From the NCBI GenBank assembly GCA_951406725.2, contig OX597817.1:49724001-49788000 (forward strand): 64,000 bases of DNA, read 5' to 3'. The notes under the pieces were generated by a model. It was not told where the DNA came from and searched no databases. It was given only the letters and a program-made list of their open reading frames with translations. The stretch comes from Octopus vulgaris. Taxonomy: Eukaryota. A program made the translations under genes and the position numbers. This document shows positions 8,196-46,592 of the stretch, piece by piece (position 1 is the first letter of the stretch; each line of letters opens with the position of its first letter).

Positions 8196-9905
8196 ATATA
8201 TATATGTTTCATTTGGTACATGACTAAGTGCGAATTTTATCATTTTTTATTTTAGATTTTTCACCTCATTTCTTATTTTTTTATTGTTAGTTTAGAGTAG
8301 CAGTTCTTTTGAAGGTCCATATAAGATTTTTGGGGTCCATGCAAGCAAAATACTAAATTGAAGACCCACAGTTGTATTTTAGGTTTCCATGAAAATAAAT
8401 TTGCTTTAGGTGTATCTGTTGCAAGTTCAAAGTACACAGGTTAATTAATGTGTGATAAATAAAATAGGAGTTTTGAAAGAAGTGTCTATAAAATTAGATT
8501 TCAAACATCAAATAACTGTGGGGAGGGGACACCAGAATAGATTAGTAATCAAAGGGGTCTATAGATAAAAGAATAGCTGAGAACCAGTCGTTTAGAGCCA
8601 TAAAGCTCCTTAGTTCATATTCAATATTTCTAGGTATTCAGGGTCTTATTTTCAAGAATTGAACAGATTTTGTGCCTGCTTTTTTTTTTTATATATAAAC
8701 AAAGGTTTTGAATTAAAAGGTATTTGAACACATCTGTGTATTTAATGAAACATATATAAAAATTAAGGTGTTTCTCATATATATATATATATATATATAT
8801 ATATATATATATATATAGCACTCTCTCACCTTAGCATTTTTCAGCCGGATAACTGAAGAGATGGCGGCGTGGATTTCCACCTCGGCATCCGAAAATCGGA
8901 GTTTTACCATGGCTACCGAATAATTGTCACATATTACATATATATATATATATATATATATATATATATATATATTTAGATAGATAGATAGATAGATAGA
9001 CGTCTATACATATATATAGATATATATGAATATGTATATATATATATATGTGTGTGTGTGTGTGTGTGTGTGTGTGTATTTATAAGAAATAATTAAAATT
9101 CAGTTGAATTAGGTACTTAAGTTGAGGCTCCAAGTCAGTCCAATATTATCCGCACAGCTTGAGGTAGGGTGAATACACTAATACTTTGACATCCTTGTTA
9201 CTTATTTGTTTTATATATATATATATGCATATATTTATGTGTGGGTGCATGTAATAGAAAAGAATTTAAAATTTAATTGTGAATTAAAATGGGTCAGTTT
9301 TGGGTTAGGAAATTTTATGCGCACAAAGCTTCTGTTGTTTACACACGGATCTTTCTTCGTAATGAAAACCAGTCATATATTTATCCAACATATTGTATAT
9401 GATTTCCATATATATATATTTATATATAAGCAGGATGTGTTCTTATTTTTATCACACACACACCTACAGTCACAGAGCAAGCTTAAATGTTTGCTTTATG
9501 TAAACATCCATGTAAGTTTACTTCATGTTTCTACTTGTCTTATCACTGTTTAAGCCTCCAATTAATTATTTTTATTGTTGAGGTTTGCACTGTTATGCAA
9601 ATTACAATTATGAATTTCTACTAGTTCCTATGTCCCCAAGAACAGTTACATAGAAAATAATAGTAGTGTGTGTGTGCACATATATATAATGTATATATGT
9701 GTGTATGTGTGTATATATATATATATATATATATAAGTGACAAGCAAAATCTGTAAAAAGACTTTCTTCCTGATAACTTAGTAGCTTCTAAGTGGAAGGA
9801 AGGGCAACAGTGTTCTTTGTCTATCTCTTTAACTTCTTGGAGATTTTAGGCAAAATTATACTAATGAGTCCATCTGTTGTAATTTAATTAAATTCTGTGT
9901 CTTTG

Positions 9906-9991
9906 TGCAGCTGATGATTGCTCTGCATTTAAATTAATGTAGTGATTGCATTGTTCAATTAAATGGAGTTGCATGAAACGATCATACTACA
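9906..9991 (+). ncRNA. hammerhead ribozyme-like motif, same family as 20172, weakened stems
   Basis: tgcag-CTGATGA-ttgc...gcat-GAAA-cgatca-TA-ctaca. The core is intact, with mismatches in stems I and III. Confidence 0.6.
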
Positions 9992-10844
9992 TTACCTCAG
10001 GATATACTTGTTGCTTATTTTGATATATATATATATATATATATATATATATAAAACATATATTGCCAGTATGGAAGGTGGATGTTAAACAATGATGCTG
10101 ATAATATATAGATGCTCTTTATTTACTAGTTTTTTCCAGATATTTTTTATGGTCAATTTTGAACACCAGTTATTATATTGCTCAAGCATAAAATGATGTC
10201 AAAATTATTTTTCCCTTGAAAACCAAAGCATTTAGTGTTCTCCCTTAAAGATAATATTCTCTGGCTCTCTCTCTCTCTCTCTCTCTCTCTCTCTCTCTCT
10301 CTCTCTCTCTCTCTCTCTCTCTCTCTCTCTCTCTCATTAAATAAGTTTGAGAAAATATCATTACATTGGCTTCTGTTTCAGTTTTTTATTGCAACAGTAT
10401 ATTGAACTTATTGACTTGGAAATATTTATTCTTTGCCTTTGTTTTAATTTGCTGTAAGGTTTCTTCTTAACCTTTGAAGACAATCAAAACTCACATCTTT
10501 TAGACACTGACAGAACTTCTCAAAGAGTATCATCAACAATAGATACAATCAGTGCTCTAACCTATTTTGTGTCTTCTGTGTGCCTTCATGTGCAAGGTTG
10601 TTATGGATGTGGTGGTATTCCATTGTTACAAATGCATGTGCTACCCTACCTGTTGCAAAAATAAAAAGAACAGTCATCTATTTGTTTAATTTTATAGTTT
10701 GAAGATTTTTGAATCTTGAATTACACTAGAAGAGTCTTGACTTGCACTAGATTTGGATTATATTGAGGAATGGTTGTGCTGGGTTAGCATCACTACTCTC
10801 TTGTCTCTGACTTCCTAGTCATGATCACAATAATCAAACCAGAT

Positions 10845-11225
10845 TGGCGGCAAGCTGGCAGAAATGTTAGCACACCAGGAGAAATATTTAGTGGTATTTT
10901 GTCTGCCTGTACATTCTGAGTTCAAATTCCACCAAGGTCGACTTTGCTTTTCATCCTTTTGGGGTCGATAAATTAAGTACCAGGGATGCACTTGATCCAT
11001 TTGTTTGTACTTGTTTGTCCCATCTGTGTTTAGCCCCTTGTGGGTAGTAAAGAAATAGGTATTTTGTCTGCCTCTATGTTCTGAGTTCAAATTCTGCTGA
11101 GGTCGACTTTGCCTTTCATCCATTCGGGGCCGATAAATTAAGTATCAGTTGCGTACTTGGGTCGATCCAATCGACTGGCCCCTTCCTCCAAAATTTCAGG
11201 CTTTGTGCCTATAGTAGAAAAGGAT
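10845..11225 (+). mobile_element. SINE family A, dimeric
   Basis: Matches the family consensus, with two body units. Confidence 0.8.
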
Positions 11226-11339
11226 AATCAAGCTAGATACATATGTAAACTGATATCACCTTGGATAAACTACTCACTTGTGACGAAAAAAAATGTCTTA
11301 CATCCTCGGCTGGACATGTAGAAGTGATTTAATGTAAAG

Positions 11340-11850
11340 ATTACTTGCCTACCACATGGTTCCAGGTGCAGTCCCACTGCATGGAACCTTAGGGAAGTGT
11401 ATTTTCCTATAGACCTGAGCTGACCAAAGCTTTGTGAGTAGATTTTTTTTTATTGCCCACAAGGGGCTAAAACATAGAGGGGATCAACAAGGACAGACAA
11501 AGGGATTAAGTCGATTACATCGACCCCAGTGCATATCTGGTACTTAATTTATCAACCCCGAAAGGATGACAGGCTAAGTCGACCTTTGTGAGTAGATTTA
11601 TTAGACAGAAACTAAAAGAAGCCTGTCGTGTGTGTGTGTAAGTATGCATGTGTATGTGTGTTTGTATCACTTTGTGTTGACATTATATGATTATTGTAAA
11701 TGAATGTCAATCAGTCCAATACTCTACAAAAACATGTCCGGCCAAAATGTTACCTTGCTGACACCCAGCAATAGAAAATCTGTCTCCATAAATTCCATCT
11801 GATCCATGCAAGCATGGAAAAGTGAATGTTGAATCAATGATGATGACATT
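11340..11850 (+). mobile_element. SINE family B-like copy interrupted by an inverted family-A fragment (11445-11585)
   Basis: ctttgtgagtagattt is duplicated either side of the insert. Confidence 0.7.
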
Positions 11851-44829: not shown

Positions 44830-45030
44830 CCTGGTGACATCACTGATGTTGGTGCTACATAAAATGTGCTCAGTACACTCTGTAAAGTCATTGGTATTAG
44901 GAAAGGCAACCGGCCATAGAAACCATGCCAAAGCAGACACTGGAGCTTGGTGCAACCTTCCGGCTCACCAGCTCACATTTAGCCGTCCAACCCATGCCAG
45001 CATGGAAAAAAGACATTAAATGGTAATGAT
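44830..45030 (+). mobile_element. retroposon family C, diverged
   Basis: Diverged consensus match. Confidence 0.65.
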
Positions 45031-45582
45031 GATATCAATGCACACACACACACACACACATATACATCATGCATGTTAACATTAAGCAAACAATTGATAC
45101 AGGTATATGTAGCATATGATGAAGATGTATGCAACATTTGGTACAGCTATACAGGCACAGTATAGCCAAATGGTTAAGAAGTTGCTTTACAACCATATGG
45201 TCCTAGGTTCAGTCCTACTCTGTAGCATTTTGGGTGAATGCTTTTTAGTTTGCTTTAGGTTGCTCCAAAATTTGTGAATGAAATTGGGGAGACGGAAAAT
45301 GTGTGGAAGCCTGCTGGATAGACTGGAATTACCTTTAATTCAAGGTATTACCTTTGTCACACTCTTTCACACTGCTTTTGCTTGAGGGTTATGTTAAGTG
45401 CACATGCACTTATCCATAAAATACGAAGTGCACATGCACTTCATATTTTATGTGTAAGTACTCAGGCACTTATATTTTAATTCAATCAGTTGGTAATTTA
45501 GTCATTTGAAACTAACCAGGATCCAACTACTTCACAATATATAACGAGAATATATATAATATGTGATAAAGGTATATACATT

Positions 45583-45915
45583 ACTTACTTAAGTCCTTCC
45601 CTCCCCATGGAGCATAGGCTATCAATGTCTTTTCTCCGTTGTTCTCGACTCGTGGCTGTCCTTTTCTCTTCCTGGTCTTGGTTTTAAATTGTCCTCATTG
45701 CTTCTGTAAATTTGACTTTTTCTAGGCAGGGGTGTTGGCTCTGTGCAAACCTATTTTTATCTCTTGGGAAGAGGTTGTCCATGATGGTCCAGCATTTATC
45801 TATTGAGTTGTCCAGCATGGGAGACACTACCAGGAGTATGTGCTCCACTGGCAAAGCTGTCAGGGTCATTGAAGTACTCAAGCCACCATATCACAACAAG
45901 GACTAGACCTTCTGG
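45583..45915 (-). mobile_element. non-autonomous RTE-derived element (5' UTR-like part joined to 3' tail)
   Basis: On the minus strand, an RTE 5'UTR-like segment (ccttgttgtgatatggtggcttgagtacttcaatgaccc) is followed shortly by gcctatgctccatgggg and a (TAAG)n tail. Confidence 0.5.
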
Positions 45916-46147
45916 TTGGAAGATATATATGTAATTATAATACAAATATGTAAAACTAATTAACTCTTTCAGTTAATTAGCTTTATATGATATAGTCACT
46001 GGAAAAGAAAATATATATGTTACATTACTAAAAACTAGCAGCAACTAGATAATCAAAACAAAAAAAAAATAGGGAAATGAGAAAGCTTCTTTCTAAGAAA
46101 TAAAGGTTTTAGAGTTAATCCATCATAATTATTAACATTATCATATT

Positions 46148-46592
46148 ACATTATTTACAGTGGATAGTTGTGTGTCTTCATCTTGTTTGTTGTTATCACA
46201 TTTCGGTTAATTTACTCTCCAGCCTTCATCAGGTGTCCTGATGAAATTTGGAACCCAAGCTTGGGTTCTCGTTCCTAAGGTATTTTTTGATGTTGTTATT
46301 ATTATTATTATTAATTCAAGGTACTGCCTGGAATTGAACTCAGAGTCTTGAGATTAGTAGACCGTACTCATAACCACTATTCAAGGCAGTGCTTTGAATG
46401 AATGAATGAATGAATAATAATAATAATCATAATTATAATAATAACATAAAAAAATACCTTAGGAATGAGAACCCATGATTGGGCTCAAAATTCCACTAGG
46501 ATACCTGATGACGGCCAGAGAGTAAATCAGCCAAAACGTTGTGGTAACAACAAACAAGATGAGGACACATGTCCGTCCAATGTAAATAATGT
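46148..46592. mobile_element. head-to-head pair of a tRNA-headed SINE with hammerhead-like tail
   Basis: Inverted arms at about 46148-46334 and 46379-46592. The centre on the minus strand has A/B-box-like TAGTGGTTA...GAGTTCAATTCC. CTGATGA occurs at 46505 (+) and 46232-46226 (-). Confidence 0.65.

Follow-up and report, generated by a model that had tools for sequence, protein, structure and literature searches.

Decayed minimal hammerhead motifs with Penelope-like features in four element families in and near the MITF gene of Octopus vulgaris

Minimal hammerhead ribozymes (min-HHR) of metazoan Penelope-like elements (PLEs) occur as solo motifs, which have been read as probably truncated PLEs, and as pairs on opposite strands separated by 100-700 bp (Cervera and de la Pena 2014, PMC4209133). 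Octopus is absent among the names in one supplement file of that study. PLE insertions include inverted 5'-truncated copies, carry one-sided tails and are biased toward microsatellites (PMC8557442). In vitro, PLE reverse transcription starts internally and cutting occurs in AT-rich DNA; insertion in vitro does not require the PLE hammerhead, and its cut site yielded no RNA ends (PMC11167929). The genome of O. vulgaris contains 190 PLE families, which make up 6.83% of it, 31 of them recently active, and 893 of its 900 recently active SINE families are unclassified (PMC13282606).

We analyzed a window of 64,000 nt from Octopus vulgaris (contig OX597817.1, 49,724,001-49,788,000, forward strand). 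The host gene is Octopus MITF, whose residues 1-104 are encoded beyond the window (Table 1). A previous reading of this DNA, made from the sequence only, had described six hammerhead motifs in four elements and had placed them all in this gene. We found that all six are present, 5-80 nt from where that reading had put them, and that they represent four families (A-D) at five insertion sites, with A present twice and D present as a head-to-head pair. The elements were said to have no other obvious similarity, and sharing between families is indeed limited to (AAT)n runs and chance matches of 9-15 nt. The placement in the gene holds for A1, B, C and A2, which are intronic (A1 by inference), but not for family D, which is 5.7 kb downstream of the MITF stop codon.

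Table 1. Positions of hammerhead-bearing elements and MITF exons in the window. The first position of each core is C3; minus-strand motifs are given in their own reading direction.
Feature	Positions	Strand	Core	Second box	Predicted cut after	Remarks
A1	9880-10024	+	9911-9917	GAAA 9975-9978	9986	hammerhead 9905-9992; 57-nt stem II; 3' end adjoins (TA)n
B, direct copy	18440-18587	-	18576-18570, CCAACGA	GAAA 18559-18556	18547	3-bp stem II
B, inverted arm	18588-18629	+				starts no more than 2 nt from the predicted cut site, ends ~42 nt past that site
C	19071-19247	+	19115-19121, CCAATGA		19162	hammerhead 19111-19166; perfect 8-nt stem III palindrome
A2	20140-20278	-	20250-20244	GAAA 20188-20185	20177	nearest to intact copy; 5' end adjoins (TA)n
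D1, body	46148-46311	-	46232-46226	GAAA 46204-46201		(AAT)n spacer; 3-nt deletion in stem III
D1, tRNA-like head	46312-46378	-				5'-truncated; D-loop, anticodon-loop and T-loop/B-box landmarks at tRNA spacing
D2	46379-46592	+	46505-46511	AAAA for GAAA	46540	final ~20 nt of head, then (GAAT)n(AAT)n; 4-nt palindrome; inverted, head-to-head with D1
MITF (host gene)	12290-40465	+				seven coding exons in window
MITF coding exons	12290-12562, 21626-21733, 28079-28183, 36663-36839, 37933-38010, 39438-39584, 40196-40462	+

The motifs had been taken for six full type I hammerheads with CUGANGA and GAAA boxes. Both boxes are intact at three of the six sites (A1, A2 and D1), and the entire core and layout are kept at two (A1 and A2). 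In contrast, the boxes of B, C and D2 are changed (B and C by two changes each from CUGANGA, G5 among them), and D1 has lost stem III because 3 nt are missing after GAAA. The core (C3 U4 G5 A6 N7 G8 A9, G12 A13 A14 A15.1, U16.1 H17) is complete in A1, in A2, and over D1 and D2 combined. Pairing is retained in 46 of 50 stem cells across A1 and A2. B and C have perfect palindromes (self-duplex -7.9 and -11.1 kcal/mol, respectively), and the stems of D are weak, with a mismatch in stem I of both copies. We interpret all six as minimal type I hammerheads that have decayed, and predict that at least four of them are inactive.

A loose descriptor, set before inspection, showed no enrichment (5 matches at a score of at least 9, compared to a mean of 3.1 and a maximum of 6 in 8 shuffles). 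A tighter descriptor, biased because it was written once the sites had been seen, gave 2 strict matches (mean 0.09; a single one of 300 shuffles gave as many) and 4 matches when one CpG-type change was allowed (mean 0.26; 0 of 300 shuffles). D1 and D2 singly fail the tighter descriptor, and none of the 25 CTGANGA sites in the window beyond the four in A and D pass it. Of the 208 Rfam matches for the window, the 150 listed include no hammerhead, and neither do the 7 for the D region.

Family A is seen as a repeat through its two copies in the window, which are 79% identical across 115 nt. A1 and A2 differ at the variable core position 7, an indel sits in a loop, and their two versions of stem III are two CpG-decay products of one palindrome. 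Stem changes between these two copies are one-sided, with zero two-sided compensatory changes.

The two D copies are 82% identical across 148 nt, and the 20-nt head remnant of D2 is 86% like the head of D1. We compared the D1 head to tRNA-Gly and obtained a score of 67, compared to 27 +/- 4 for shuffled sequences (0 of 2000 shuffles), yet this tRNA had been picked as the best database match at E = 2. The tRNA landmark pattern matched 1 place, with 0.08 expected, and the A box is without its 5' half. Neither ARAGORN nor Rfam called a tRNA in the head. The head is likely tRNA-derived and D is likely a non-coding partner element. This head also suggests a SINE moved by PLE machinery. Stated in full, D would be a tRNA-headed, Pol III-driven SINE with a PLE-type minimal hammerhead, moved by Penelope-like machinery and not by a LINE; we offer this tentatively, at a little less than even chances. 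Our search of open-access text found no description of a tRNA-headed SINE dependent on PLEs, and such an element, if real, would be a new pairing of promoter and mobilizing partner.

We found the link between these motifs and PLEs to be well supported by the minimal type I layout, the palindromic stem III, the position near the 3' end, the inverted second copies, the one-sided tail and the AT-rich sites. The predicted cut sites are 35-105 nt from the 3' ends (the 3' end of D is set only by its two arms), and that of B is ~105 nt from the (TA)n boundary. 5' truncation together with an adjacent inverted copy and a one-sided tail is present at the direct copy and arm of B and at D1/D2. Because the B arm spans only ~42 nt past the cut, the direct copy carries ~63 nt of tail on one side only. 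The sequence-only reading had most elements adjoining (TA)n. A TA run is no more than 10 nt away at four of 10 element ends, compared to 3.6% of positions, a comparison that is partly circular in that the run itself was used to set some of the ends; D, however, is more than 1.3 kb from the nearest TA run.

These PLE traits also agree with the proposal that the elements are mobilized by PLEs. That they are non-autonomous is best supported for D, because its upstream part is tRNA-like, whereas the picture at A-C is equally given by 5'-truncated full PLEs. We scanned 80 of the 157 open frames in the window and found no RT or GIY-YIG match, and none of the four families was tied to an autonomous PLE. 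We consider it probable that the four elements are 3' ends of PLE families, most likely remaining as 5'-truncated and sometimes inverted insertions, with D likely the tRNA-headed partner described above, and that their motifs have decayed.

By analogy with PLE biology, a PLE RT/GIY-YIG protein would have nicked AT-rich microsatellite DNA. Starting some tens of bases downstream of the ribozyme, reverse transcription would have ended prematurely, and sometimes a second, inverted cDNA would have been added. In the source elements, the ribozyme may cleave as a dimer via the palindromic stem III; Lunse et al. have reportedly worked on dimer cleavage. The copies in the MITF gene body would later have lost CpG sites. 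CpG methylation in Octopus is enriched in gene bodies (PMC9476566).

Alternatively, all four could be dedicated unit-length non-autonomous families, either non-LTR retrozymes present as solo monomers or SINE-like partners, whose source loci were tandem or Pol III loci and whose movement relied on PLE proteins. The similarity of A1 and A2 begins at one shared 5' point, ~30 nt upstream of the core, and stops at a shared 3' end, as expected for such families, and the non-coding tRNA-like head of D, the very high depth over B (below) and the vertebrate retrozyme monomers, which occur dispersed and show a relationship to PLE ends (bioRxiv 10.64898/2026.07.22.740005), also fit. However, the common start of A1 and A2 proves little because a TA run sets the 5' end of A2, there are no tandem units at the five sites, and the retrozymes described to date have canonical type I motifs within tandem repeats of 300 bp (PMC7229834). 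We therefore regard dedicated families as unlikely. Tandem retrozymes at the locus itself are ruled out, as none of the five sites has head-to-tail copies.

Family-level variation was followed for B and C in contigs of public runs, two of them DNA-type; for A and D we compared the copies in the window. B is a very high-copy repeat family and C is a repeat family: summed contig depth (not a copy number) was 0.5-2.0 million over B and 11-61 thousand over C, compared to 45-55 on unique flank. In the two DNA-type runs, position 18561 is C in 81% and 81% of depth, which restores one stem II pair of B, and position 19141 is G in 88% and 84%, which restores one stem II pair of C. Position 19117 is G in 59% and 55% of depth, restoring G5 of C, and the C core in most contig depth is CCGATGA (RNA CCGAUGA), a U4C variant. 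Majority changes at 19122 and 19125 break pairs of C with no partner changes among the rows listed, and the contig tables for B and C contain zero linked stem changes. The majority of depth keeps CpG at several decayed places of B and C. For the D region no RNA run was listed, and the four best runs are small ones guessed to be RNA; two such runs (X4 and X5) had zero cover on the intron flank 19265-19400. Neither observation was counted as evidence.

The contigs do not restore G5 of B. At this position (18574) the change reaches less than a fifth of depth, and the T>C counts (7 and 9 in the two DNA-type runs) are all taken by other places, so B may be without G5 family-wide, or the contigs there may be biased by seeds and ends. 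This result, the constrained fold of B (-1.2 kcal/mol with its short stem II) and the presence in the same window of TA-flanked fold-backs without a hammerhead might indicate that some sites, B foremost, are not ribozymes family-wide and are instead fold-back or MITE-like repeats or long-dead hammerhead lookalikes. We think this improbable. Stem I of B has 14 positions with one mismatch, its 9-nt palindrome varies only at the unpaired centre (18552, in 39% and 38% of depth), and the majority change at 18561 repairs stem II. In addition, long contig pieces of B end at 18571-18588 without continuing into the inverted arm, so the fold-back looks local.

Two contigs in X9 join 18555 to 18588, forming a fold-back centred on the B palindrome, which could have arisen in assembly and was left uncounted. 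The exact motifs of D and B had 0 matches in all six scans of viral, metagenome and prokaryote collections. An 18-nt C motif in one phage contig was attributed to chance, since no hammerhead surrounds it.

It is very improbable that the host has kept the motifs as ribozymes for cutting or regulating MITF transcripts: A1, C and D2 are on the MITF sense strand, but C has lost G5 and D2 has lost G12, A1 has an AUA triplet, mismatches in each of its three stems and a hammerhead fold 8 kcal/mol worse than its free fold, A2, the best-preserved copy, is antisense to MITF, and the locus is more decayed than the family majority in contigs.

Returning to the reading of the elements as PLE 3' ends, the arm of B, which starts at the predicted cut site, could be a genomic fossil of a self-cleaved RNA under reverse transcription. 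We hold this as a doubtful proposal. If true, the arm would be in vivo evidence of hammerhead cleavage within the PLE cycle. High-copy families like B permit a direct genomic test, in which inversion and truncation points either pile up at the cut site or do not. The ribozyme could also serve as a sorting key for short unclassified repeats.

We compared the octopus sites to four described systems. Like animal non-LTR retrozymes (PMC7229834; bioRxiv 10.64898/2026.07.22.740005), they are non-coding, with a type I hammerhead, a proposed PLE dependence and dispersed monomers. In contrast, those retrozymes are defined by ~300 bp tandem units and circular RNA, and the octopus sites are known from DNA and are without tandem units. 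D resembles the SINE-like alpha elements of Schistosoma (PMC6765202), in which a hammerhead follows a Pol III-type promoter, in that its tRNA-like head, a putative promoter of this type, precedes a hammerhead; however, alpha elements are tandem repeats, whereas the two D copies are joined head-to-head, their minimal motif is of the PLE type, and an (AAT)n spacer is present.

The likeness to insertions of the Penelope/Poseidon and Neptune clades (PMC8557442, PMC11167929) extends to 5' truncation, an adjacent inverted copy, a tail at one end, AT-rich or microsatellite sites and a ribozyme located some tens of bases before the 3' end. The octopus sites differ from these insertions in having no ORF and in the length of the B tail (~63 nt, compared to the 30-40 bp described). 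With the min-HHR of PLEs (PMC4209133) they share the type I layout, a stem III that is short or palindromic, the presence of several families in one genome, copies that are mostly solo, opposite-strand pairs a few hundred bases apart, an unpaired base after A9, and G10.1-C11.1. D has a 4-nt palindrome like that of the Lottia motif and is close to the published consensus. Unlike the published motifs, C has the U4C core in most depth, A has a stem II of 55-57 nt, and D1 has a tRNA-like head. Since solo and opposite-strand min-HHR from truncated PLEs were described in 2014, the overall pattern was already known, and the sites in and near MITF extend it to Octopus.

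The window is AT-rich animal DNA with abundant microsatellites, and it carries MITF. The exon-encoded peptide matched Pfam PF15951 and the MITF proteins of three Octopus species (96-97%). Seven coding exons were mapped; the first 104 residues fall outside the window.

Hammerhead-like sites, MITF exons and neighboring repeats. Summed depth is that of aligned contigs and gives no copy number.
Feature	Position	Strand	Observation
MITF coding exons	12290-40462	+	n=7
A1	core at 9911	+	CUGANGA and GAAA kept; long stem II
A1 stem I, 5' strand	9893-9910	+	ends AG after T-rich stretch, resembling a 3' splice site; A2 has GG
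A2	core at 20250	-	CUGANGA and GAAA kept; long stem II
B	core at 18576	-	CCAACGA; perfect stem III palindrome and stem I
B inverted arm	18588-18629	+	38/39 identical to direct copy
C	core at 19115	+	CCAATGA; perfect stem III palindrome and stem I
D1	core at 46232	-	GAAA, then 3 nt missing
D2	core at 46505	+	AAAA in place of GAAA
D pair	46148-46592		5.7 kb beyond MITF stop codon
tRNA-like head of D	46312-46378	-	between D1 and D2
Short repeat near microsatellites	9091-9151, 20056-20126, 29610-29680		one copy adjoins A2 3' end
Very abundant short repeat between B and C	18638-18787		also at about eight other places; summed depth up to 29 million
Short (TA)n-flanked repeat	614-684, 18817-18877, 24693-24772, 53619-53683		no visible hammerhead
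TA-flanked fold-back repeat	18917-19019, 24792-24855		no hammerhead; summed depth 0.5-1.0 million at 18968-19000
Fold-back	36912-37118		207 nt (85%); neighbor 36860-36936 recurs at 4447-4523
Second, weaker fold-back	35548-35683		
LINE C-terminus remnant (DUF6451)	62417-63007	-	

The sequence-only reading proposed six hammerhead motifs in four elements. All six sites are present, with both boxes in three of the six and the whole layout in two, because the B and C cores are altered, D1 lacks 3 nt and D2 has AAAA. The elements are mutually unlike, as proposed: the families have just (AAT)n and matches of 9-15 nt in common. A loose first descriptor (score at least 9) was not enriched, giving 5 matches versus 3.1 on average over 8 shuffles. 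A tighter descriptor, written after the sites had been seen, gave 2 strict matches (reached in 1 of 300 shuffles) and 4 CpG-tolerant matches (0 of 300), and failed to pick up D1 and D2. No hammerhead was found among 150 of 208 Rfam matches listed for the window or among the 7 for the D region. Therefore, our case leans on paired copies and family data over single motifs.

The two copies of family A share 79% identity over 115 nt, differing at free core position 7 and by a 4-nt indel located in a loop. Across the 25 stem pairs that could be compared, 46 of the 50 cells (two copies each) were paired; between these two copies, changes were one-sided and none was two-sided. The stem III sequences are probably the two possible CpG-decay products of one 8-nt palindrome. 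Octopus gene bodies are methylated (PMC9476566), and the CpG loss at this locus fits such methylation.

The D copies point apart and are 82% identical over 148 nt. Combined, they give a complete core in which the base after A9 is unpaired, along with a closing G-C pair and a palindrome of 4 nt. If transcribed, the pair would fold into a long hairpin that could serve as an RNA-editing substrate, provided it is within the MITF 3' UTR. The stretch between the copies, on the D1 strand, shows tRNA landmarks, a pattern found at this one place in the window (0.08 expected). It scored 67 against a phage tRNA-Gly, chosen as the best match (E = 2), versus 27 +/- 4 for shuffles (0/2000); ARAGORN and Rfam did not call it as a tRNA. 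D2 opens with the final 20 nt of the head (86% alike), followed by the same (AAT)n spacer as D1; the duplicated unit therefore comprised head end, spacer and body. This arrangement would fit a single template that had a tRNA-derived head and was truncated twice. Another reading that fits is a Penelope-like element (PLE) end that landed in the (AAT)n tail of a SINE and was later duplicated as DNA.

For B and C, evidence from beyond the window came from a single alignment of public contigs onto 18440-19400 (four runs, contigs only, 80% likeness, differences counted from 20%, 40 of 48 listed). Summed depth, which gives no copy number, was 0.5-2.0 million for B and 11-61 thousand for C, compared with 55 and 45 in unique flank (two DNA-type runs). 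Both are clearly repeats, and B is very abundant. Pieces of family C cover 19071-19247. Most of the depth in the DNA-type runs (59%, 55%) has G at 19117, regaining G5 in a core CCGAUGA, and G at 19141 (88%, 84%) regains one stem II pair. No change at 19116 (position 4) is among the 40 of 48 differences listed, so C is a U4C variant; in a viroid, U4C lowered activity and did not abolish it (PMC3088659). Two changes, at 19122 and 19125, disrupt pairing unless matching changes in their partners sit outside those 40. Depth on the two arms of C differs sixfold, and subfamilies are therefore mixed.

In family B, C at 18561 (81%, 81%) regains stem II, and the unpaired center of the palindrome is variable (39%, 38%). 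At 18574, the G5 position, no change reaches a fifth of contig depth, because other positions account for every T>C difference tallied (7 and 9); the position sits ~10 nt from the end of family similarity, where seed and end effects favor window-like reads. None of the 40 of 48 differences listed lies in stem I or the paired stem III arms of B or C.

The inverted arm of B starts within 2 nt of the predicted cut site and ends 42 nt past it. The direct copy extends ~63 nt beyond the end of the arm, and this extension is also repeated in contigs. The arm looks local because the longest B pieces end at 18571-18588, although assemblies handle fold-backs poorly. Across all four families, 35-105 nt separate the predicted cut from the 3' end. 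As to the proposed preference for microsatellites, 4 of 10 element ends are no more than 10 nt from (TA)n versus 3.6% of positions, partly by definition, and D is not at (TA)n. No target duplications were readable, and no RT or GIY-YIG match occurred among 80 of 157 open frames scanned. The short (TA)n-flanked repeat could represent the 3' ends of PLEs that lack a hammerhead, for example Naiads; the fold-backs at 36912 and 35548 may be MITE-like or inverted retro-insertions.

Bases G5 and G12 have essential roles in the hammerhead. The B, C, D1 and D2 copies, having lost G5, stem III or G12, are predicted to be dead, and A1 to be weak. The A2 copy is close to intact (constrained fold -10.3 versus free -12.1 kcal/mol), but it stands alone and antisense to MITF. 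The motifs are therefore unlikely to affect MITF RNA. Published work proposes that minimal hammerheads act as dimers via stem III; their cleavage in vitro is weak (PMC4209133, PMC6765202).

From the motifs, lesions, repeats and inversions seen here, we infer that families A-D are 3' ends that PLE proteins copied. A PLE protein cleaves DNA at AT-rich places and begins reverse transcription within RNA downstream of the hammerhead, and two start sites create a one-sided tail (PMC11167929). Typical PLE traits include truncation at the 5' end, a neighboring inverted copy and a bias toward microsatellites (PMC8557442). The elements resemble hammerhead-bearing PLE ends in the way they work and most likely belong to the PLE system. 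The sequence-only reading had made all the elements dedicated and non-autonomous; its PLE link is supported, and we rank that reading, which seems rather unlikely, below one in which the families are probably mostly truncated PLE ends. Family D, with its tRNA-like head, and the B arm at the predicted cut site merit genome-wide attention.

In the open-access literature we found no octopus hammerhead or tRNA-headed PLE partner; "octopus" is absent from the PMC4209133 supplement file covered (one of two), as is "ribozyme" from the main text of PMC13282606, which reports 190 PLE families in O. vulgaris, covering 6.83% of the genome. A squid genome has 235 Rfam hammerheads (PMC6962438), and Schistosoma is known to have hammerhead SINEs driven by Pol III (PMC6765202). 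Tandem retrozymes (PMC7229834; bioRxiv 10.64898/2026.07.22.740005) do not match, because tandem units are absent here. In D. virilis Penelope, an intron ends at helix I (PMC4209133). The same work describes thousands of minimal hammerheads in each genome, which fall into several families, mostly occur singly and probably derive from truncated PLEs, as well as opposite-strand pairs 100-700 bp apart; among the Lottia and Crassostrea motifs in its supplement, one is nearly identical to D around the core.
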